Positions 23,072 to 32,000 of a stretch of 32,000 nt of DNA are shown here, one piece after another. Location: contig NZ_CP060715.1 in assembly GCF_014396165.1 (NCBI RefSeq), forward strand, positions 450,001 through 482,000, in the 5' to 3' direction. The notes under the pieces are model-generated. The model was not told the origin of the DNA. It searched no databases and saw nothing but the letters and a program-made list of their open reading frames with translations. This DNA is from Erysipelothrix inopinata. GTDB taxonomy: Bacteria; Bacillota_I; Bacilli_A; Erysipelotrichales; Erysipelotrichaceae. A program made the translations under genes and the position numbers. Each line of letters opens with the position of its first letter. The stretch's first letter is position 1.

Positions 23072-24148
23072 CTATTTCCGTTTCTTTTTCAGGTATGTAT
23101 GAACACCAAACGCTCCTGCAGCAGCTCCGGTAGCAGTGACAGCCACTCCAACAGCAACCGATCCGCTACTCTCAACTTCTAAGGGAATAGAAAATCGTCC
23201 ACTGAGAGTAGTAACTTCTATTATGTTTTCTTCTTCATTAAACTCCAACTCTTTTCCACCGATTGAAGTATCATTCACTTTCAATCCTTGAATATTAAAT
23301 TTTTTAATATGTTTATAATCTTTATTAGAAATTTTCATGAAATTTCCACCTGGAGACAATTCAATATTTTCTCCACTTGAAATTACTGTAATTTTATAAT
23401 CATCAAATTTCATGTTTTCATCAATATATATAATTGAATAAACATATTTTTTTGATTTTGATTCATCTTCTGAAGTAACTTCAACATTGATTTTAGATTC
23501 TTTAAAATTTTCTGATTTATCCATTTCCACTTTATAACTTGCATCTTTGTTTTTTAAATCAACTTGAATATTCGTTGGAAATGGCTGTTCCGCTAGATAT
23601 ATATTGCTTTGATTCAAATTCAAAGGAACAAAGCCCTTCGTTTTTGTTTCGAGTTTTATATTATCAATCTCTACACTCTCAAGGCGTTCTTTTTCTTCTT
23701 TAGCACGTTGTTCTTCCTCAAGACGTTCTTTCTCTAGTCTTTCCGCTTCCAGTTTTTCAGCTTCTAATCTTTCCGCTTCAATTCTTTCGTCCTCAATCCT
23801 TTTTGCTTCTGCTTTCTCTGCCGCGATTCTTTCATTTTCTACTCGAGCAGCTTCTGACTTTTCAGCAGCAACTCGTTTTTGTTCCGAATTGTTTGATGCA
23901 GGTGCGGGTGCTGAACCACCACCACAAGGATTAGAGTAACCAAGGTTATCACCATCAGGATAATAACGATTACCTTTTTTTGATGCACGATGCCAGTGAT
24001 TATCTGGACCATGGCTGCCATACAATTGTCCATTACAACTCACTACATTACCTGAACTTATTTGACCACCACTTGCCTCAATACTCATTCCAAAAGTGAT
24101 GAACATTAACATTGCTAGAAGTGATACCTTTATTTTACGATTCTTCAT
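23072..24148 (-). CDS. Cell-surface protein: signal peptide, Cys/His module, Glu/Arg/Ala-rich coiled coil, beta-rich domain, C-terminal membrane anchor
   Basis: Signal sequence [25 protein letters not shown]. Then [18 protein letters not shown]...NPCGGG. Then (A/I)E(K/R)(L/A)EAE(R/K) heptad-like repeats. The C-terminus has [25 protein letters not shown] followed by KKKRK. Confidence 0.7.
23680..23875 (-). repeat. Imperfect short tandem coding repeats (ER/EK coiled-coil segment)
   Basis: Reiterated CTTTCCGCTTC / TTTTCAGCTTC-type units encode [52 protein letters not shown]. Confidence 0.5.
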
Positions 24149-24272: not shown

Positions 24273-24902
24273 ATGAAAATAATAGATCTTTCACACCCTC
24301 TCAATGATCATACCCCAACATATCCTGGAGATCCAAAAACAGTAATTAAAGAAATTACTTCATTAAAAAAAGATGGATACTTAACAACACGACTCACTAC
24401 GTCACTCCATAATGGGACACACGTTGATTCACCATGTCATTTATCTGATAATACAAAGCACATTGATGACTACTCTCTTGATACTTTCATTGGTACGCCA
24501 ACGATTATTAAAACATCTGATCCAATCATTGATTTAACACAGAGTATTCAAGATACTATCTCAAATTCTAAGATAGTCATTTTCCAAACAAACTACGATA
24601 CTTATTATGGTACTGATGATTACTACAGCAACCATCCTATCATTACGCTGTCTCTTGCTGATGCCTTAATTGATGCAGGAGTCAAAGTAGTAGGGTTTGA
24701 TTCTCCTTCTCCAGACAAGGATCCCTTTGAAGTTCATCAACACCTTTTTAATCATGATGTTTTGATTGTGGAAAACTTAACCAATCTCGCATCATTAGAA
24801 GATTATAAAGACATTGTTATCCACATGGTTCCTTTAAGAATTCACGCAGAAGCATCTCTCATACGTGCTTACGCTATTGTGGACGACGAGAAGCCATTCT
24901 AA
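24273..24902 (+). CDS. Cyclase-family protein (kynurenine formamidase-like)
   Basis: 209 aa. IDLSHPL and HNGTHVDSPCH match the HxGTHxDxPxH metal-binding motif of the putative cyclase / arylformamidase family. Confidence 0.78.
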   Translation: MKIIDLSHPLNDHTPTYPGDPKTVIKEITSLKKDGYLTTRLTTSLHNGTHVDSPCHLSDNTKHIDDYSLDTFIGTPTIIKTSDPIIDLTQSIQDTISNSKIVIFQTNYDTYYGTDDYYSNHPIITLSLADALIDAGVKVVGFDSPSPDKDPFEVHQHLFNHDVLIVENLTNLASLEDYKDIVIHMVPLRIHAEASLIRAYAIVDDEKPF

Positions 24903-25332
24903 CAAAGAAGCGGTAGAACACTTCAACCATAACAATCGCAAGTGCTATCGATACTGAAATTGAGAATGTTTTGACGATTAATCCCATTCCTAAAATGTAA
25001 TCACCACTTACAAATGCGTTAACGGTTTGATAAGCTGCAATCCCTGGAACGAGTGGAAAAACACCTGGAATATTAAAGGTTGTAGCAGGCATACGGTTTT
25101 TCTTAGCAAAATAGATTGACAAGAATGATACGAAAATTGATCCGATAAACACAGCGATAATCTGACTGACTCCCAGTTGCATTAGAATCCAAGCGCTAAT
25201 CCAACCAGCCATTCCAGTAAAGCCACAGTTAAACAACACTTTTCTCGGAACATTTACGATAATGCCGAAGAAAAATGCTGATACAAAACTACTTAATGCT
25301 TGTACTAAGACTCTCATATCCATATTCATCAC
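24874..25332 (-). CDS. Threonine/serine exporter family protein, small subunit (YjjB/DUF3815-like)
   Basis: 152-aa four- to five-helix membrane protein. It immediately follows its YjjP-like partner with no gap. Confidence 0.75.
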   Translation of the reverse strand: MMNMDMRVLVQALSSFVSAFFFGIIVNVPRKVLFNCGFTGMAGWISAWILMQLGVSQIIAVFIGSIFVSFLSIYFAKKNRMPATTFNIPGVFPLVPGIAAYQTVNAFVSGDYILGMGLIVKTFSISVSIALAIVMVEVFYRFFVRMASRRPQ

Positions 25333-26085
25333 CTAAAACATCTTGAGTGCAGACATTACGCCTGCCCCAATCATCCCTGCTATTACCATAGCTTCCATCA
25401 TAAATACAGTTCCAGAAATTGTGTTACCTGCTAAAAAGTCACGGATTGAATTCATAATTTGAATTCCAGGAACCAATATTATAATGCTTCCAATAATGAC
25501 TGTATCGGGATTGGTAACCAAACCGAGTTGATTCAAGCCATTAGCCAGAAGCGCCATTAGGAAGGTAGCTACAAATTCTTGGATAAATCGTGCTTTCATA
25601 ACTCTTGCAAGATAAGAGTAAAAACTATATCCTAAAGCACCAATCAACATCGTAATACCAATATCTTGAAATGAACCCTCGAACAGAAGCATCATGAAGC
25701 CACTAATCAATCCTGAACTGACGATCTTTAGCCAGTATGGAAAGTCGGCTTCATTTTTTTCAAGTTCGGTTAGCGCGTCATACAACTCATCAACTGATAA
25801 ATCTTGAGCACTAAATTGTCTCGATAAGCTATTTACTTCAACGATCATTTCTAAGTTTTGACGACGTTTCACGATTCGCTTCATTTTCGTTGTTCTACCA
25901 TAACGAGTCGTAACAAAAATCCCAGTTGGAATTACAAAGCTCATTGCTTCCCCATCGCCATGTCGTACATCTAAAATGCGATTCATTGTATCTTCTACAC
26001 GATGCATCTCGGCACCATTTTCCATTAATATCTTGCCTGCAATCATGCAAGCATCCATTAATTTTTCTTCATCTAAGAAATCCAC
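25333..26085 (-). CDS. Threonine/serine exporter family protein, large subunit (YjjP/ThrE N-domain, DUF1212-like)
   Basis: AGKILMENGAEMHRVEDTMNRI is the family-typical N-terminal motif. GTG start at 26085 follows GGGGTGG. An ATG ten codons downstream is an alternative start. Confidence 0.75.
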   Translation of the reverse strand: MDFLDEEKLMDACMIAGKILMENGAEMHRVEDTMNRILDVRHGDGEAMSFVIPTGIFVTTRYGRTTKMKRIVKRRQNLEMIVEVNSLSRQFSAQDLSVDELYDALTELEKNEADFPYWLKIVSSGLISGFMMLLFEGSFQDIGITMLIGALGYSFYSYLARVMKARFIQEFVATFLMALLANGLNQLGLVTNPDTVIIGSIIILVPGIQIMNSIRDFLAGNTISGTVFMMEAMVIAGMIGAGVMSALKMF

Positions 26086-26114: not shown

Positions 26115-26798
26115 TTAACAGATATCTATTTTTTTGTTGGATTTAATTTCAAAGATATAGAGAACCATCATAGCAACCATAAAGACTAAGAAGACGGAAA
26201 ATACTATCACACTCCCATGCGGATTCTTAAATTTACTTATTATCGAATAATACCCAGGACTAAAAAACATAAATAAGTAAAAAAATGCATTCGATGTATT
26301 CGATATCAACAGAGGTCTTTGTGTCTTAAAGTATAGTGTCATTACAATAATGGATACTACAACCATTGTCGTTAAAATAATTAACTGAGTTAATCCAAAG
26401 GATATCCCTGGAAAATACGGTAGTAAAGATTTAAAACAACCAACATATACAAACGATACCATCATCGTTGTAATTAGATAAGGTATTAGAGCTCTGTAAA
26501 ATAGATATTTTCTTATTTCTGTTTCGCTTTCTTTGCCTGAAAGTATATAGGAGAGAACTGTAGGTTCCTGTATAGAAACATAGGATGATTTAAGAAAATA
26601 TATAAATGCTACCGCATTAAATATAAACACAATGATTTGGTTCGTATAGAAATAATCCAACATAAGCGTTTGATTATTTTCTAGCAAATCAATAGCGATA
26701 TAATTATCAGCAGTAGAGGCAACCAACAGTGAAAGAACCATCACGAGGAGAATAAAAGCATAGTAACGTAAGCATGACCTGTTTATGTAGTTTTTCAT
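26115..26798 (-). CDS. Module A: 227-aa polytopic membrane protein (putative ABC membrane component)
   Basis: About 6 predicted helices. A 4-nt ATGA overlap joins it to the upstream NBD gene. It is the same length as, and colinear with, its paralogue at 29038-29721. Shared motifs: F(Y/I)RALIPYL and the C-terminal KK(I/V)D(I/L)C. Confidence 0.7.
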   Translation of the reverse strand: MKNYINRSCLRYYAFILLVMVLSLLVASTADNYIAIDLLENNQTLMLDYFYTNQIIVFIFNAVAFIYFLKSSYVSIQEPTVLSYILSGKESETEIRKYLFYRALIPYLITTMMVSFVYVGCFKSLLPYFPGISFGLTQLIILTTMVVVSIIVMTLYFKTQRPLLISNTSNAFFYLFMFFSPGYYSIISKFKNPHGSVIVFSVFLVFMVAMMVLYIFEIKSNKKIDIC

Positions 26799-27613
26799 AC
26801 AGTTCCTCTTTCTAACATAATTAATAAATCATGGAGTTTGATTTCACTGACTTCATTACTATTGTTTTTTGTAGTATCAATTAATACTTCTACAAAGTCT
26901 CTCTTTTTTCGAATCCCCACAACTCCTTCAGTCGGAATTTTCTCTTTACTTCCTGTCCACAATTTATATCGGTCTTGAAGTTCTAAGACACTTCCTTCAA
27001 AGAATTTCTTCCCATTCTTCATATAAACTAAATGATCACAAATATTTTCAATGTCTTCAACATTATTAGATGCGATGACTACATAGTTTTCTTCATTGAG
27101 TAAGTATGTCTGAATCATATTTTTAAACTCTATTTTATTCTTTTCATCAAGCCCATTGGTAGGTTCATCTAACAGTAGCATCTTTGAATTGCTTAATTTC
27201 ATCAACTCAAACATATATTTCTTTTGCTGACCTTTTGACAATTCTCTTATTTTTAAGTGTGTTGGAATGCCAGCACTGATTAAGTTTCTTTCGAATACTC
27301 GAGCATTAAACCCATCATAAACTTTCTCAAACAAAACAGTACTACTGAATACTCCCATATGAGGAGTAACAGGGACAGAATCCGGCATATAAAAAACAGT
27401 ATTATTTTTCTTGTAGTCTTCTAGCGAATATGAATCAACAGAATACGTTCCTTGATCCAAACTTAGGGCGCCACATAGGATTTTTAACAGCGAACTCTTT
27501 CCCCCTGAATTACGGCTCACAATCATGGTTACGAGGCCCTTGGGAATTTCTAGGTAATCGATGTTAATTTCCAAGTTTCTTCTACTCTTAGTTGCATTTT
27601 CTAATACAATCAT
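26795..27613 (-). CDS. Module A: ABC-type ATPase subunit 2 (partly degenerate)
   Basis: P-loop SRNSGGKSS, signature LSKGQQKK, Walker B MLLLDEPT. The H-loop position is ASNN, with no His. It carries a C-terminal extension of about 70 aa. Confidence 0.8.
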   Translation of the reverse strand: MIVLENATKSRRNLEINIDYLEIPKGLVTMIVSRNSGGKSSLLKILCGALSLDQGTYSVDSYSLEDYKKNNTVFYMPDSVPVTPHMGVFSSTVLFEKVYDGFNARVFERNLISAGIPTHLKIRELSKGQQKKYMFELMKLSNSKMLLLDEPTNGLDEKNKIEFKNMIQTYLLNEENYVVIASNNVEDIENICDHLVYMKNGKKFFEGSVLELQDRYKLWTGSKEKIPTEGVVGIRKKRDFVEVLIDTTKNNSNEVSEIKLHDLLIMLERGTV

Positions 27614-27618
27614 TTGAA

Positions 27619-28356
27619 TTACCTCCTTTGGTAGGCACTTACAAATTCTTTGATATCAATTACTTGCGAGTCTGATTCTATGAGTTGATGCGCTATATTT
27701 GAAAATTCCACAATATCAGCATTGATGATAGGATATCCTTCATCAAAATATAAAACATAATCCACAACATCATTAACCTCTTCGATATTATGTGTACTTA
27801 TTATTGTGACACTTTCATTTTCATATGTGTAATCTATAATATCGTCAAGAATTTCACTTCTAACAAAAGGATCAATACCTGCCATCGGTTCATCAAAGAT
27901 AAGAAGTTTCGGTTTGTGAGATAAGGCAACAGCTACCATGAGCCTTTGTTTCATCCCTAAAGAGAGATTCTTTGAACTCGATGTTTCATCAACATGATAC
28001 TTATCTAAGTACGCTAAGCAAGTATCTCTATCCCACAGATTACCAAATAGGGTTTCATGAAGTTTTAATATCTCCGAAACTTTTGTAGCAGGTCCGAAAG
28101 GAAATAAATCAGGAATGTAAGCAAGATCGTTATTGAACCAGTCCTTATCATTAAAATTTATTATTCCAGAATCTTTATATTTAATTCCAGTTAGAAGTTT
28201 AATAAATGTCGTCTTTCCAGAACCGTTTTCTCCGAAAACTCCAATTATTTGGCCACCTTGTACATCTAAATTAACAGGACCACATTTGAATTTCACATTT
28301 AAAGCATTATCTTTCAACAACTCTCTTTGAAGCTTTTCAATATGTAGTTTATTCAT
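27619..28356 (-). CDS. Module A: ABC-type ATPase subunit 1 (canonical motifs)
   Basis: Walker A GENGSGKTT, signature LSLGMKQR, Walker B LLIFDEP, H-loop STHN. The start is placed at ATG 28356 (MNKLHIEKL), 8 nt after AGGAGGG. Confidence 0.85.
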   Translation of the reverse strand: MNKLHIEKLQRELLKDNALNVKFKCGPVNLDVQGGQIIGVFGENGSGKTTFIKLLTGIKYKDSGIINFNDKDWFNNDLAYIPDLFPFGPATKVSEILKLHETLFGNLWDRDTCLAYLDKYHVDETSSSKNLSLGMKQRLMVAVALSHKPKLLIFDEPMAGIDPFVRSEILDDIIDYTYENESVTIISTHNIEEVNDVVDYVLYFDEGYPIINADIVEFSNIAHQLIESDSQVIDIKEFVSAYQRR

Positions 28357-28369
28357 CGTATTTGCCCTC

Positions 28370-28897
28370 CTATTCGAAATCAAGTTTTTTAAGTTTATTC
28401 AAGCGGTATCCATCTAGAAATACTGATACCACAGTTATTACTAGTTTAGCTATAATATTCTGACTCATACTAAATAATATCCATATTACTGTTACAACTA
28501 GGAGATCCAGTAATATATATGCGAAATCCTTTGAATTTTTTCCTAAGTTCAACTTGAAATACATTGCTAGCGATAACCAAGTAATTACCATTAACGCAAA
28601 TGACAAATCAAAATTAACCTGGAATCCTTTGATATAAAGAACTACAGATGTGATTATAAAAAATATTATTGTATCGAGTAACATACTTTTTATAAATTCA
28701 TTGATACTGAATGGTAAGGTTTTAAAGTAACCCTGAGCGATTGAAGTATCTCTTATAGTAAATGATGAATAACCTAAAGCAATTCCCCATGCAAATTCGT
28801 TTCCCCAATCATTTCTAACGAGTAACATTACTACAATAAGAGCCCAGATTAAATTCTTGAAGTTATTTCTCATGTTAATCTTGAAAATTCTAATCAT
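28370..28897 (-). CDS. Module A: 175-aa polytopic membrane protein of unknown family
   Basis: About 5 helices. It shares GYF.TLP, MYFKLN.GKNS and the C-terminal YRL..L.KLDFE with its paralogue at 31292-31816. Confidence 0.7.
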   Translation of the reverse strand: MIRIFKINMRNNFKNLIWALIVVMLLVRNDWGNEFAWGIALGYSSFTIRDTSIAQGYFKTLPFSINEFIKSMLLDTIIFFIITSVVLYIKGFQVNFDLSFALMVITWLSLAMYFKLNLGKNSKDFAYILLDLLVVTVIWILFSMSQNIIAKLVITVVSVFLDGYRLNKLKKLDFE

Positions 28898-29006
28898 AAA
28901 TTTTCCCTCCTTGCCCTTTTACTACAATAAGAAAATATTAATAACTATTTCTTTCAATTATTTCGTTTAGCATCATTGACTTACTGTTGTCTGGGAGTTC
29001 TATACG
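28898..29006 (-). pseudogene. Relic of the 3' end of a YtrA-type gntR gene (duplication scar)
   Basis: An ungapped hand alignment to 31809-31924 gives about three quarters identical positions over roughly 116 nt, including an identical TAAGTCAATGATGC. The corresponding frame reads ...RIELPDNSKSMMLNEIIERNSY*YFLIVVKGQGGKIYD*, with an in-frame stop. No HTH-coding part is present. Confidence 0.55.
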
Positions 29007-29037
29007 TGCTCATATTATTTATGATGATACTTTTTAT

Positions 29038-29721
29038 TTAACAAAGATCTACTTTTTTACTTGATTTAATTTGGTATAAGTAATAAGCATCCATTCCTAA
29101 CATCACCACAATAAACACTAGACTAAGTATTCCTCTTCCAGAGAAATCCGCATCATTTATTAATGTCGGAAGGTAAGTAAATGCAAATAAGAATACAACA
29201 TACATAATTACTTTTTTCTCAAGAGAAGGTTTAAAAACATTTTCTGTTTTATAGTATATGACCATAGATATTATCGTAATCGCAACAATACATAATAGAA
29301 TTATGTTCTGTAGTGGATCAACAACAATTCTGGGGTTATATTGCGTTAGTGCCTCGAATTTCGAATAAAATATCATGTAGTTTATAACAGTAACAGCCAG
29401 GTAAGGAATTAATGCTCTTATAAACAGAAACTCCTTAATATCTTCTTTAGCATCTACTCTTGACAATAAAAATGATAGATTCGTAGTTGTAAATGTATAT
29501 TCGTAAACACTCCCTAGTAAATATACAAATGCAAATGTATTCATCATAAATACTACTAATTGACTAATATATATCTTCTCTATTATTTGCTCTATTGAAG
29601 AATCAAATAAATAGACTAAACCAAGATTAAATGATGATGCAGCAATCATACTTGTAATTGCTAGTACTAACATAATCAATCCATAATACCACTTGCTGGA
29701 TTTTCTAATAAATTTTTTCAT
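29038..29721 (-). CDS. Module B: 227-aa polytopic membrane protein (paralogue of 26115-26798)
   Basis: Same length and topology as the module A protein. A 4-nt overlap joins it to the upstream NBD gene. It ends in KKVDLC. Confidence 0.7.
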   Translation of the reverse strand: MKKFIRKSSKWYYGLIMLVLAITSMIAASSFNLGLVYLFDSSIEQIIEKIYISQLVVFMMNTFAFVYLLGSVYEYTFTTTNLSFLLSRVDAKEDIKEFLFIRALIPYLAVTVINYMIFYSKFEALTQYNPRIVVDPLQNIILLCIVAITIISMVIYYKTENVFKPSLEKKVIMYVVFLFAFTYLPTLINDADFSGRGILSLVFIVVMLGMDAYYLYQIKSSKKVDLC

Positions 29722-30536
29722 CGTGAACCCCTTTCTAGCATGTTTAGAAGATCGTTGAGTTCAAGTCTTTCTACTGGGGCAAGGTCAAACACATACGTAT
29801 CAATCAAAGCCTCTAATGTCTCTTTATTTCTTCTGATTCCAACTACTCCTAGTTTGGGTAATTCCTCTTCTTTTCCTTGCCACATTTGATATCTTTCTTG
29901 CATTTCTAAGGCAGTTCCTTCAAAGAATACTTCGTTATTTTTAAGGTAGATTAAATGATCACCAAACATTTCAATATCTTCCGCATTGTTTGAGGCCATC
30001 ACGACATAATTGCTTTCATTGATTAGATGCGTTTGAATCAGTTGTTTTGCGTTTAGTTTGTTTTCTTCATCCATGCAACTCATGGATCCATCTATGAGTA
30101 ACATCGCATCGTTAGTCAACTTGAATAATTCCAACATATATCGTTTTTGTTGTTCTTTAGAAAGTGCCTCTAATTTAAGATGTGGGGGAATATCTGCTAA
30201 CTTTAGAGCTCTTTCTAACTTCCTTGAATCAAAACTAGGAATCATATCTTCAAAGAGATCGATATTTTTAAATACAGTCATGTTTTGTTTCCCAACTGCT
30301 TTGTCTGGTGCATAAAAAATCCCATGATACTTCTTGTATTTGTCAATTGACATATCATCAATTTTTATGACTCCGGCATCAAATTCTATGGCTCCACTTA
30401 TGAGCTTTAATATTGTACTCTTTCCAGAAGATTTTTTTCCCACAATCATTGTTACAAGACCTTGGGAAATTTCGAGGTGATCAATTTCAAGAACCAAGTT
30501 TTTACGTTTCTTAGTAACATTTTCTATTATAATCAT
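29718..30536 (-). CDS. Module B: ABC-type ATPase-like subunit 2 with degenerate Walker B and signature
   Basis: 272 aa, colinear with 26795-27613. Walker A GKKSSGKST is intact. The signature is LSKEQQKR (G to E). Walker B is MLLIDGS, so the catalytic Glu is absent. The H-loop position is ASNN. Confidence 0.75.
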   Translation of the reverse strand: MIIIENVTKKRKNLVLEIDHLEISQGLVTMIVGKKSSGKSTILKLISGAIEFDAGVIKIDDMSIDKYKKYHGIFYAPDKAVGKQNMTVFKNIDLFEDMIPSFDSRKLERALKLADIPPHLKLEALSKEQQKRYMLELFKLTNDAMLLIDGSMSCMDEENKLNAKQLIQTHLINESNYVVMASNNAEDIEMFGDHLIYLKNNEVFFEGTALEMQERYQMWQGKEEELPKLGVVGIRRNKETLEALIDTYVFDLAPVERLELNDLLNMLERGSR

Positions 30537-31282
30537 TTTTGATTCCTCCTGTTATATTCCTCTACAAATTCTGTAATATTCATTTTGTTGTTATCCGTAT
30601 TGAGAATTCTATTGGCTTCTTCTGGAAAATCAAATTTGCTGGCATTGATTATAGCACTACCCTGTTCAAAATATAGAATATGATCAACTACATCATTCAC
30701 AACTTCAGTATCATCTGTAGAAATGAATGTGATACTTTCATATTCATACGTACATTTAATAATATCATCATAAATTTCTTTTCTTATAAACGGTTCAAAC
30801 CCTTCTTTAGGTTCATCAATGATTAGAATTTTTGCATTATGAGACAAGGAGACAGCTACGATTAGTTGTTGTTTCATTTCCAAAGATAAATGTAAAACTT
30901 TTAGTGTTGGATCTATATTATATCTAATAAGAAAATACTTCCATTTATCATCGTCCCAACTATCCCAATATAATGTCTGATACGTTGTTATTATATCTTT
31001 AACTTTCATTTTTGAATTAAATGGAAATTCCGAAGGAATATACGCGAGTTCATTTTTAAACCATGTTTTTTCGTTAAAAATCACCACCCCTGAATCAGAA
31101 TATTTAATTCCCGACAATAATTGTATAAATGTTCTTTTTCCAGACTCTTTTTGTCCAAATATTCCTATTATTTTATTTCCGGATATATCTAGGGAAACAG
31201 GCCCTACTTTGAGCACATTTTTTTGTGGTTTTTCTACAGTTATCGTTCTTTGCAGACTCTCTATTTTGATTCTATTCTCCAT
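30533..31282 (-). CDS. Module B: ABC-type ATPase-like subunit 1 with degenerate Walker A, signature and H-loop
   Basis: P-loop GQKESGKRT, with Arg where Ser/Thr is required. The signature is LSLEMKQQ. Walker B ILIIDEP is retained. The H-loop position is STDD, with no His. Confidence 0.75.
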   Translation of the reverse strand: MENRIKIESLQRTITVEKPQKNVLKVGPVSLDISGNKIIGIFGQKESGKRTFIQLLSGIKYSDSGVVIFNEKTWFKNELAYIPSEFPFNSKMKVKDIITTYQTLYWDSWDDDKWKYFLIRYNIDPTLKVLHLSLEMKQQLIVAVSLSHNAKILIIDEPKEGFEPFIRKEIYDDIIKCTYEYESITFISTDDTEVVNDVVDHILYFEQGSAIINASKFDFPEEANRILNTDNNKMNITEFVEEYNRRNQK

Positions 31283-31291
31283 GACGTCCTC

Positions 31292-31816
31292 CTACTCGAA
31301 ATCCAATTTTTGTAAAGTCTTAAGTCGGTACACTACACCTGCAGTAGGTATTAGCAATACAAGTATTTTTAAGTTTATTGATGGTGCTAAAGTAAATAGG
31401 AACCATACAGCGACTATTGCAGCTAAATCCAAGAACCAGTACTTTTTTTGTAACGAGTTTTTTCCAACATTAAGTTTGAAATACATAGACGAAAGCAGAA
31501 TTTCTAACATATAAATTAATATGATCTGATCAGTAAAAGCAACATCTTGAATCATAGCAACTGTCATGTAAATTGTTATTATTACTAACGTTTCTATTAA
31601 TTTTTGATAAATTATATTTTTCATTTCTATAGGAAGTGTACTAAAATAGCCTACTGACAATCTTCCTGGGTTTGATGATAAAACCGTATACATAAGAATC
31701 CAAAACATATTCCTCTCAAGGGTTGAATCTGGATCAATGAAAATCATAATCAAAAGGGTAGTACCTATAATATAAAGAAATCTGTCTCTAATTGTACTTA
31801 CTAACATGTTAATCAT
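31292..31816 (-). CDS. Module B: 174-aa polytopic membrane protein (paralogue of 28370-28897)
   Basis: Its start overlaps the gntR stop by 8 nt (ATGATTAA). It ends in KLDFE followed by TAG-GAGG, the same junction as in module A. Confidence 0.7.
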   Translation of the reverse strand: MINMLVSTIRDRFLYIIGTTLLIMIFIDPDSTLERNMFWILMYTVLSSNPGRLSVGYFSTLPIEMKNIIYQKLIETLVIITIYMTVAMIQDVAFTDQIILIYMLEILLSSMYFKLNVGKNSLQKKYWFLDLAAIVAVWFLFTLAPSINLKILVLLIPTAGVVYRLKTLQKLDFE

Positions 31817-32000
31817 AAACTTTTCCTCCTTGCTCTTTCACTTCATTGAGAAAATCCTCATAACTTATTCCTGAATTTTTTGCTTGTTGCATCATTGACT
31901 TAATGTTATTAGCCAGTTCTTTACGATAGATAGTTTGAAAAGTTTCTGGTTTCTTTTCGGAAACATAACAACCTTTCCCCGCTACCATCACGACATAACC
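31809..32000 (-). CDS. GntR-family (YtrA-subfamily-like) transcriptional regulator, 5' end outside the window
   Basis: The reading frame is open to the window edge. ...GYVVMVAGKGCYVSEKK matches the wing of the GntR winged helix (G.GtfV). The short helical tail that follows is typical of YtrA-type regulators, which precede ABC operons. Confidence 0.6.
   Translation of the reverse strand, partial: GYVVMVAGKGCYVSEKKPETFQTIYRKELANNIKSMMQQAKNSGISYEDFLNEVKEQGGKVYD

Follow-up and report, generated by a model that had tools for sequence, protein, structure and literature searches.

The distal part of a 32,000-nucleotide stretch of the Erysipelothrix inopinata genome (contig NZ_CP060715.1, positions 450,001 to 482,000; hereafter, the window) carries, on its minus strand, a gene for a YtrA-type GntR regulator followed by two paralogous four-gene ATP-binding cassette (ABC) modules, designated A and B. 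Our analysis identifies this locus as a strongly diverged variant, confined to one lineage, of the ABC-2 peptide pumps that YtrA-type repressors control, and not as a categorically new machine. It is also a site of cassette polymorphism, at which anciently diverged alleles (A, B, C, and the type carried by contig L008) are found between conserved regulator and thrE flanks. With modest confidence, we interpret it as a YtrA-repressed, Pmt- or Mbr-like exporter or immunity system of the ABC-2 class directed at membrane-active peptides, in which module A would be the working pump and module B a repurposed paralogue whose hydrolysis is probably impaired.

One regulator and two paralogous modules

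According to the list of open reading frames (ORFs), positions 26115-31816 hold eight intact, back-to-back ORFs on the minus strand. They form two modules with the same order, namely a small transmembrane (TM) protein, two proteins with nucleotide-binding domains (NBD1 and NBD2), and a large TM protein, and their lengths in amino acids (aa) match between A and B (175/174, 245/249, 272/272, and 227/227). The features are listed below; coordinates are those of the window unless preceded by a contig label.

26115..26798, minus strand: large TM A, 227 aa, about 6 TM helices, an orphan; the conserved flank takes in its last ~12 codons (to 26152)
26795..27613, minus strand: NBD2 A, 272 aa, PF00005 (E=3.6e-14), ~70-aa C-terminal domain; motifs SRNSGGKS, LSKGQ, LLLDEP, ASNN
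27619..28356, minus strand: NBD1 A, 245 aa, PF00005 (E=2.6e-23); motifs GENGSGKT, LSLGM, LLIFDEP, STHN
28370..28897, minus strand: small TM A, 175 aa, 6 predicted helices, invariant GY(F/L)..LP motif, C-terminal DFE
28891..29006, minus strand: remnant of a regulator 3' end, pseudogenised, last ~38 codons with an in-frame stop; marks the tandem junction
28898-29037: B/A spacer, 140 nt, holding the regulator remnant
29038..29721, minus strand: large TM B, 227 aa, 33 % identical to A and 51 % to L007 (C type)
29718..30536, minus strand: NBD2 B, 272 aa; motifs LLIDGS, LSKEQ, ASNN; in a clade with NBD2 of L007 (100 % bootstrap)
30533..31282, minus strand: NBD1 B, 249 aa; motifs GQKESGKR, LSLEM, D-loop EGFEP, STDD
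31292..31816, minus strand: small TM B, 174 aa, its start overlapping the regulator stop
31809..32000, minus strand: 3' part of the gene for the YtrA-type GntR repressor (full protein 116 aa), which continues past the window end

An initial annotation of this DNA, made from the sequence by eye, had described two same-order minus-strand cassettes of matching lengths, and all eight ORFs were found where it placed them. It had also estimated that one third to one half of the positions were identical, which agrees with the 30-51 % obtained with BLASTP: large TM A and B share 33 % of their residues in a gapless alignment over 227 aa (E=1e-37), NBD2 51 % (E=7e-100), NBD1 50 % (E=1e-88), and small TM 30 % (E=8e-22), all far beyond chance. 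The equivalence of the gene junctions also holds, with KLDFE-TAG-GGAGG following the small TM gene of each module and the NBD2 and large TM genes of each overlapping by ATGA; an overlap of this kind also joins NBD1 to NBD2 in module B. For NBD1 A, the start at ATG 28356 (245 aa), served by a GGAGGG ribosome-binding site (RBS), agrees with the gene calls in sister contigs; the alternative start, TTG 28383 (a mechanical ORF of 254 aa), would overlap small TM A. The small TM A protein is 100 % identical to E. inopinata H9L01_02430, and large TM A is separated from thrE by 29 nt that contain no terminator.

The region had also appeared AT-rich, and the module genes do have a lower GC content than the other genes (0.309 vs 0.362), but GC at third codon positions (GC3) is equal (0.273 vs 0.272). 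Because GC3 does not differ, the lower GC of the module genes is explained by amino-acid composition, the membrane proteins being rich in Ile, Phe, Lys, and Asn, and a foreign origin inferred from low GC was ruled out.

The complete regulator gene, available in sister contig L001 (1604-1954), encodes a protein of 116 aa with a PF00392 domain, in line with its earlier assignment as a YtrA-type GntR regulator; its nearest solved relatives, Lmo0741, Lmo2241, and Lin1836, are YtrA-type proteins of 121-134 aa. Directly after the pflA terminator, just outside the window, lies a promoter, TTTACA-17-TATAAT (L001:1500-1565, L002:9555-9620), whose -10 box is overlapped by a perfect 10+5+10 inverted repeat, ACTGTATATA-ATAGG-TATATACAGT, identical in L001 and L002 and thus in two species. 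The repeat is of the GT...AC type, as expected for GntR proteins. The repeat ACTGTATATA-N5-TATATACAGT is likely the YtrA operator, with ACTGTATATAATAGGTATATACAGT as the predicted target sequence of the regulator. No second operator, internal promoter, or terminator was found from the regulator to the end of module A, and the minus strand of the B/A spacer holds no promoter or terminator consensus. We infer that the eight module genes and the regulator are likely covered by one transcript.

As had been proposed, the genes are arranged in an atypical order. Among 36 metagenomic loci with related YtrA regulators (41-53 % identical), the arrangement regulator-NBD-TM dominates, with a permease of the PF13346 (ABC2_membrane_5) family, and the arrangement regulator-TM-NBD-NBD-TM occurs in none of the 36. 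This metagenome search by regulator returned no relatives above 53 % identity, and hence no new cassette types. In some gut-metagenome contigs (L026:8189-8710 and L052:8074-8598), a related YtrA regulator is immediately followed by an unrelated 4-TM protein of 173-174 aa with no adjacent ATPase, which may represent a different YtrA-controlled membrane-protein module.

ATPases, membrane proteins and related systems

All four NBDs match PF00005 with 47-84 bits against a Pfam cut-off of 25. Their best NCBIfam model is in every case PmtA (79-125 bits against a cut-off of 350, with NBD1 A at 125 bits), followed by lantibiotic-protection, DrrA, GldA, and energy-coupling factor (ECF) ATPases, all far under their cut-offs. 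The nearest solved NBDs are those of ABCA4, ABCA3, ABCA1, PmtC, LptB, and NosF; for instance, PmtC (6xjh_C) aligns with NBD1 A at E=7e-19 in a PDB search. These neighbors belong to the type II/V "ABC-2" world. The NBD2 family is sharply delimited, since its profile recovers six clade members at 436-527 bits and the next match at 105 bits. In every cassette type except B, the motifs are as follows.

NBD1: Walker A GxNGSGKT; Walker B DEP; H-loop STH; signature LSLGM
NBD2: Walker A SxNSGGKS; Walker B DEP; H-loop ASN (no His); signature LSKGQ

The H-loop ASN(N/S), which lacks the histidine, is present in NBD2 of the A, C, L002, and L008 types, and the more canonical signature (LSKGQ) sits on this catalytically poorer subunit. 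Such complementary asymmetry between NBD1 and NBD2 recurs in all cassette types and, as a motif pattern, is the standard one for heterodimeric exporters in which one ATP site is consensus and the other degenerate. Separately, the Q-loop Gln is replaced by Asp, Ser, or Glu throughout the clade (AYIPD in NBD1 A, around 28100-28120), and YtrA-associated ATPases of the outgroup read FIPEE, FVPEE, or FINDE, so that the whole subfamily deviates from the ABC consensus here. These outgroup ATPases resemble NBD2 in their D/E variant of the Q-loop, their Walker B (LLLDEPTNGLD), and a C-terminal domain of ~70 aa; these shared features indicate that the system descends from YtrA-associated ABC-2 stock.

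The membrane proteins are more difficult to place. The initial annotation recognized no family for either of them, and the searches concur: Pfam and NCBIfam provided no family even when every family member was searched at E<=10, where only scattered single Pfam matches appeared, and PDB sequence-profile searches returned no match to either protein at E<=10. In an exhaustive HMMER search of 1.84 billion representatives, the large TM protein had only 4 relatives, all in this clade, and the matches from word-indexed and exhaustive protein searches were confined to the Erysipelothrix clade. Homology between the small and the large TM protein was rejected (hhalign probability 0.3 %). The AlphaFold2 (AF2) model of small TM A shows six helices (pLDDT 73.6, pTM 0.70) and is the only usable one, as that of the large TM protein has a pLDDT of 52. 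TM domains of the ABC-2 class (NosY, PmtD, CcmB, ABCG16) recur near the top of both Foldseek lists, a hint only, given that the lists are non-significant; the match of the large TM protein to PmtD, for example, has a TM-score of 0.40 and E=3 and comes from the pLDDT-52 model. Compared with 19 PF13346 permeases, the small TM family gives a weak alignment (hhalign probability 38 %, E=3e-4, 58 columns) that covers the invariant GYF-TLP-S motif including LP. The large TM protein shows no relation to ABC2_membrane_5 (hhalign probability 0.5 %), and no member of either membrane-protein family has a Pfam match to PF13346.

Both families have invariant short tails: EIKSNKKIDIC with a terminal Cys in the large protein and K(L)DFE in the small one (26115-26152 and 28370-28390). 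This conservation stems in part from overlap with the recombination flank or the RBS, and the remainder may be an NBD docking element.

The order of the genes raises the question of whether the modules could be ECF-type importers of vitamins or metals, with small TM as the S component, the two NBDs as EcfA and EcfA', and the 227-aa protein as the T component. Dedicated ECF operons are exemplified by ykoEDC and cbiMNQO, and the order S-A-A'-T and the protein sizes would fit such operons; the ECF ATPase model TIGR04521 is also among the NCBIfam matches. Its scores (51-97 bits), however, are far under the cut-off of 330 and lower than those of PmtA, and no large TM member gives a CbiQ/EcfT (PF02361) signal even at E<=10. 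Neither a T nor an S component was matched in the PDB at E<=10, and no S component occurs among the top 50 Foldseek matches of the pLDDT-74 small TM model. ECF ATPases have a conserved FQNP Q-loop, whereas Asp or Ser is found here; the R of the RALIPY motif is not invariant; and a YtrA repressor and hypervariable cassettes are unexpected for a vitamin importer. We therefore regard an ECF importer as very improbable. Two further candidates were rejected. Lantibiotic immunity of the LanFEG type, in which a lantibiotic cluster supplies one ATPase and the two ABC-2 membrane proteins LanE and LanG, is contradicted by TIGR03740 scores of 37-115 bits against a cut-off of 310, by the two ATPase genes, and by the lack of lantibiotic genes nearby; for anti-phage defence, PADLOC returned only generic ABC/AAA ATPase matches (mad3, AriA, <=68 bits) and none for the four membrane proteins.

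The initial annotation had set the gene order apart from that of the B. subtilis ytr operon and of the usual GntR / ATPase / ABC-2 permease triplet. The closest systems, which it did not name, are Pmt of Staphylococcus aureus and the YtrA/ABC2_membrane_5 "Mbr" type. Pmt exports phenol-soluble modulins (PSMs) and protects against them under the control of the YtrA-type PmtR (PMC5080381, PMC7527219, PMC9974410). As here, a co-oriented YtrA-type repressor gene overlaps the first transporter gene behind a single upstream promoter/operator (PMC5080381), and the products of the four structural genes are a pair of dissimilar ATPases and a pair of dissimilar proteins of ~6 TM helices. The ATPase class is also shared (PmtA as the best NCBIfam model, PmtC as a PDB neighbor), and PmtD is a non-significant fold match. 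Nevertheless, the equivalog cut-offs are not reached (79-125 vs 350 bits for PmtA, NF047565; 46-81 vs 375 for PmtC, NF047568), the order in Pmt is NBD-TM-NBD-TM whereas here it is TM-NBD-NBD-TM, and neither PmtB nor PmtD resembles the membrane proteins in sequence (PDB searches, E<=10). An NBD2 without the H-loop His, a doubled module, and within-species cassette polymorphism also set this locus apart from Pmt, and no PSM-like peptide genes are known at this locus.

Similarly, the Mbr type shares the regulator subfamily (about 115-135 aa, a winged helix-turn-helix with a short C-terminal extension; 116 aa here) and the palindromic style of the operator, its outgroup ATPases share the traits of NBD2, and the small TM protein aligns weakly to the LP region of ABC2_membrane_5. 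It differs in having one ATPase and one permease, compared with two ATPases and two unrelated membrane proteins here; in addition, the ATPase genes here are separated from the regulator gene by that of a membrane protein, and regulator identity is only 41-53 %. In Streptococcus salivarius, MbrRAB confers multi-bacteriocin resistance (bioRxiv 10.64898/2026.02.18.706565).

The B. subtilis ytrGABCDEF operon likewise combines a YtrA repressor with several membrane proteins and two ATPases (YtrB and YtrE). One of its products, YtrF, is a permease of the FtsX type that has a large extracellular domain. Nothing comparable to it is found here, the gene order differs, and no Pfam family includes the membrane proteins of the present locus. 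The ytr operon is induced by cell-envelope antibiotics (PMC12772383, PMC8060467).

Cassette polymorphism and the origin of the tandem

The site has the context pflA - regulator - module - thrE, and a single module is present in L002 (an Erysipelothrix metagenome-assembled genome), L007, and L008. Anchoring the search on an exact match to the window's ThrE protein yielded 17 contigs; among the matches listed, at least 8 contigs carry a single module that is at least 95 % identical to that of L007 (the "C type") and one carries a double module, the latter being the same contig as L001. The tandem described by the initial annotation is thus not the norm in this gene-neighborhood survey, in which the usual state of the site is a single module. 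Nucleotide (nt) identities in the flanks are as follows.

10.8 kb downstream flank, identity to the window: C-type strains 95.5-95.7 %; double-module strain 95.1 %; L002 87.8 %
1.95 kb upstream, C-type strains vs double-module contig L012: 98.1-98.3 %

The C-type strains thus resemble the window as closely as the second strain with a double module does. Between the window and L007, nt identity is 97.9 % up to 31810 and 97.7 % from 26152 on, compared with 66-68 % in between, and both boundaries, at 31810 (the regulator stop) and at 26152, are sharp. Synonymous divergence (dS) between the window and the C type amounts to 0.10-0.12 for thrE and 0.20 for the regulator gene, and it is saturated in all module genes. 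Saturated cassettes between low-dS flanks point to old allelic lineages that have been exchanged or retained, and not to fast evolution in place. Module A groups with L002 (59-84 % aa identity; large TM 69 %) and then with L008. Module B groups with C, as indicated by the NBD2 clade and by large TM, which is 51 % identical to C vs 33 % to A. An arms race over peptide specificity would fit this pattern of cassette alleles.

The sisterhood of B and C is clear for NBD2 and large TM and weak for NBD1, and it is not seen in the small TM protein (B-C 31 %, A-C 37 %, A-B 30 %). This uneven signal may mean that the cassette is a mosaic whose breakpoint separates NBD1 from NBD2, or may be due to rate differences only.

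The junction between the two modules preserves a trace of how the tandem arose. The 140-nt spacer ends with RIELPDNSKSMMLNEIIERNSY*YFLIVVKGQGGKIYD, which is 53-55 % identical at the aa level to the last 38 residues of the regulator (tblastn, E about 1e-8). Relative to the 3' end of the functional regulator gene (31810-31925), 28 of 116 nt differ in the remnant (76 % nt identity; divergence K=0.29-0.35). The remnant and module A are collinear with the junction of regulator and module A in L002, which identifies regulator-A as the ancestral adjacency; the event that added module B began near codon 79 of the regulator gene. The K of the remnant is smaller than the dS of the regulator between species (0.55-0.94) and far smaller than that between A and B (saturated, at least 1.6), which favors unequal recombination that joined two already diverged alleles. 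We give this origin about an even chance; two alleles would then have been joined in tandem in the type lineage by recombination inside the regulator gene. Dating by the junction is suggestive only, given that the remnant is 116 nt long and may be partly constrained, since the RBS of small TM A lies within it. The spacer differs by ~3-5 % between strains whose dS is 0.03-0.23, so that partial constraint is possible.

The initial annotation had proposed an old duplication with all frames intact. The deep paralogy and the intact frames hold, and the junction is now documented, but the sister of B is C and not A, and module B has lost catalytic motifs. Alternatively, the module and the 3' end of the regulator would have been duplicated once, in situ, in an ancestor of all sampled Erysipelothrix lineages; the A-type and B/C-type copies would have diverged at that site and then been lost differentially: recombination between the regulator repeats would have dropped the upstream copy (L002, L008), and recombination in the large TM tail would have dropped the downstream copy (C type). 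The regulator remnant is indeed the kind of tandem junction that a duplication leaves, direct repeats would ease the losses (the 116-nt regulator 3' end, and the DNA of the EIKSNKKIDIC tail, 97.7 % identical between A and C from 26152), and the topology (A, L002, L008) vs (B, C) fits a single old split. Such a history, however, requires at least 3 independent precise losses, and the junction (K 0.29-0.35) looks younger than the A/B split (dS at least 1.6), with the caveat of its 116 possibly constrained nt. We consider it a tentative alternative to the joining of diverged alleles.

The ThrE-family exporter is split into two adjoining genes (24883-26085, minus strand; 250 aa and 149-152 aa; PF06738/PF12821), and ThrE1 is 99.6-100 % identical at the aa level among strains, beside the hypervariable cassette. 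At 23072-24148 (minus strand), a 358-aa protein combines a signal-like N-terminus, charged coiled-coil repeats rich in E, R, L, K, and A, and a C-terminal TM anchor; its length ranges over 353-374 aa, it is sometimes split among otherwise near-identical strains, and the flank alignments lose identity or break there.

Divergence of module B and predicted function

Only module B is non-canonical in both ATP sites. In NBD1 B, Walker A reads GQKESGKR, the signature LSLEM, the D-loop EGFEP, and the H-loop STDD, in which His has been replaced by Asp; in NBD2 B, Walker B reads LLIDGS, in which the catalytic Glu has become Gly, and the signature LSKEQ. All of these motifs are the same in the window and in L006. 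Between these two, the ratio of nonsynonymous to synonymous divergence (dN/dS) across module B is 0.18-0.35 (small TM 0.18, NBD1 0.24, NBD2 0.24, large TM 0.35) at a dS of up to 0.23, compared with 0.06-0.17 in module A. Module B is under purifying selection, although a looser one than module A.

When B was compared with its sister C in Tajima relative-rate tests that used three outgroups, there were 54-61 changes unique to B vs 13-18 unique to C in NBD1 (p<=2e-5) and 42-47 vs 13-16 in NBD2 (p<=6e-4), so the NBDs of B evolved about 3-4 times faster than those of the sister; the test of large TM was not significant (21-24 vs 13-22). At sites that are invariant in the four other cassette types, B has 45 private changes in NBD1 and 34 in NBD2, compared with 1-10 for the other types (1-8 in NBD1). 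An acceleration that is confined to the NBDs and lies in the past, together with altered motifs that are now conserved, favors a changed role over plain decay. Module B most likely has a changed, hydrolysis-poor role and would not be a redundant second pump.

The same loss of catalytic residues in both sites, along with the 45 and 34 private changes, could be taken as early pseudogenisation of a functionless, redundant copy in slow decay; dN/dS exceeds that of module A in the same strain pair, and conspecific strains live with one module. We find this improbable. The four frames are intact in three strains with a dS of up to 0.2, dN/dS is well under 1 in all four genes, the degenerate motifs are conserved between strains, the membrane proteins of B show no acceleration, and B has been retained even though a deletion route through direct repeats exists.

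How a changed role might look is suggested by analogy with MbrRAB, in which the ATP-bound ATPase captures the YtrA-type repressor and hydrolysis releases it, and the catalytic-Glu mutant MbrA-E153A derepresses about 10-fold without stimulus (bioRxiv 10.64898/2026.02.18.706565). The changes in B are natural counterparts of this mutation (Walker B DE to DG in NBD2; an H-loop change of H to D and a Walker A change of T to R in NBD1; and G to E in both signatures), and B directly follows the repressor gene. Module B might thus be a natural "sensor or trap" transporter that no longer hydrolyzes ATP and serves to hold or titrate the repressor, an idea that we regard as speculative and rather unlikely. 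The former pump would have become a regulatory device, acting perhaps when its diverged membrane proteins bind a different peptide, and would set the expression level of module A or widen the range of inducers. A conceptual precedent for a sensing and detoxifying pair is found in BraDE and VraDE of S. aureus, paralogous peptide-resistance ABC transporters that split sensing/signaling and detoxification (PMC6291627); the likeness depends on the motif degeneration of module B. They differ in being BceAB-type (FtsX-fold) transporters with two-component signaling that are not adjacent tandem copies, and in that BraD retains its catalytic residues. If the sensor-or-trap role is true, the tandem would be a self-contained ABC division of labor between sensing and detoxifying that operates without a kinase.

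For the locus as a whole, we envisage one autoregulated operon in which the YtrA-type repressor is followed by the two paralogous modules, and the pump would be switched on once the repressor leaves its palindromic operator. The four proteins of a module would assemble into an asymmetric heterotetramer, a predicted exporter in which one ATP site is consensus and the other degenerate. Module A, the ortholog of the single module found in other species, has retained canonical motifs and is the candidate for the working pump. The ATPases belong to the ABC-2/Pmt/lantibiotic-immunity class, and YtrA-type repressors govern pumps of this class that act against membrane-active peptides, which makes the extrusion of amphipathic peptides the most likely job; the substrates could be bacteriocins, host antimicrobial peptides, or self-made peptides extruded from the membrane. 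Peptide immunity or envelope stress, which had been offered as a guess in the initial annotation, is the best functional inference that the data allow.

Several observations weigh against the exporter or immunity interpretation. Sequence searches (HMMER, Pfam, and PDB profiles) place neither membrane protein in any transporter family, the structure models are weak (large TM, pLDDT 52), and every fold match has E>0.4 (Foldseek vs PDB). The Q-loop Gln is replaced by Asp or Ser in all NBDs here, a trait common to the outgroup subfamily; the cassettes and their immediate surroundings contain no peptide gene; and the term hydrolysis-poor, as applied to module B, is a reading of motifs only. In addition, the four genes of Pmt make up two separate homodimeric transporters, PmtAB and PmtCD (PMC7527219).

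By analogy with Pmt, each module could encode two homodimeric transporters, (small TM + NBD1)2 and (NBD2 + large TM)2, and the locus four in total. Apart from the precedent of PmtAB and PmtCD as distinct homodimers in one YtrA-controlled operon (PMC7527219), the genes are coupled in these pairs (stop-GGAGG-start between small TM and NBD1, ATGA overlap between NBD2 and large TM), the canonical relatives consist of one ATPase and one permease, the small TM protein weakly resembles that permease, and NBD2 has the C-terminal domain of the triplet ATPase. An NBD2 homodimer, however, would lack the H-loop His in both sites in any cassette type, and the better signature on the catalytically poorer NBD is the classic pattern of a heterodimer. 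NBD1 and NBD2 of module B also overlap by ATGA, and the two were accelerated together. Paired homodimers are therefore possible but somewhat unlikely, and we retain the heterotetramer as the working model.

YtrA-controlled ABC pumps are emerging as a widespread, kinase-free form of antimicrobial-peptide resistance in Gram-positive bacteria. Unlike those of Pmt, Ytr, and Mbr, the membrane subunits described here are missed by every family model, which suggests that much transporter diversity is hidden among proteins labeled "hypothetical." The ancient alleles that segregate within a species between near-identical flanks offer a natural experiment on pump specificity, most plausibly driven by bacteriocin competition. 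Furthermore, one repressor here governs both an intact module and a catalytically degenerate one, a natural pair that makes the recently proposed ATP-cycle-dependent sequestration of the repressor directly testable in existing strains, by comparing the B+A haplotype with the single-C haplotype.

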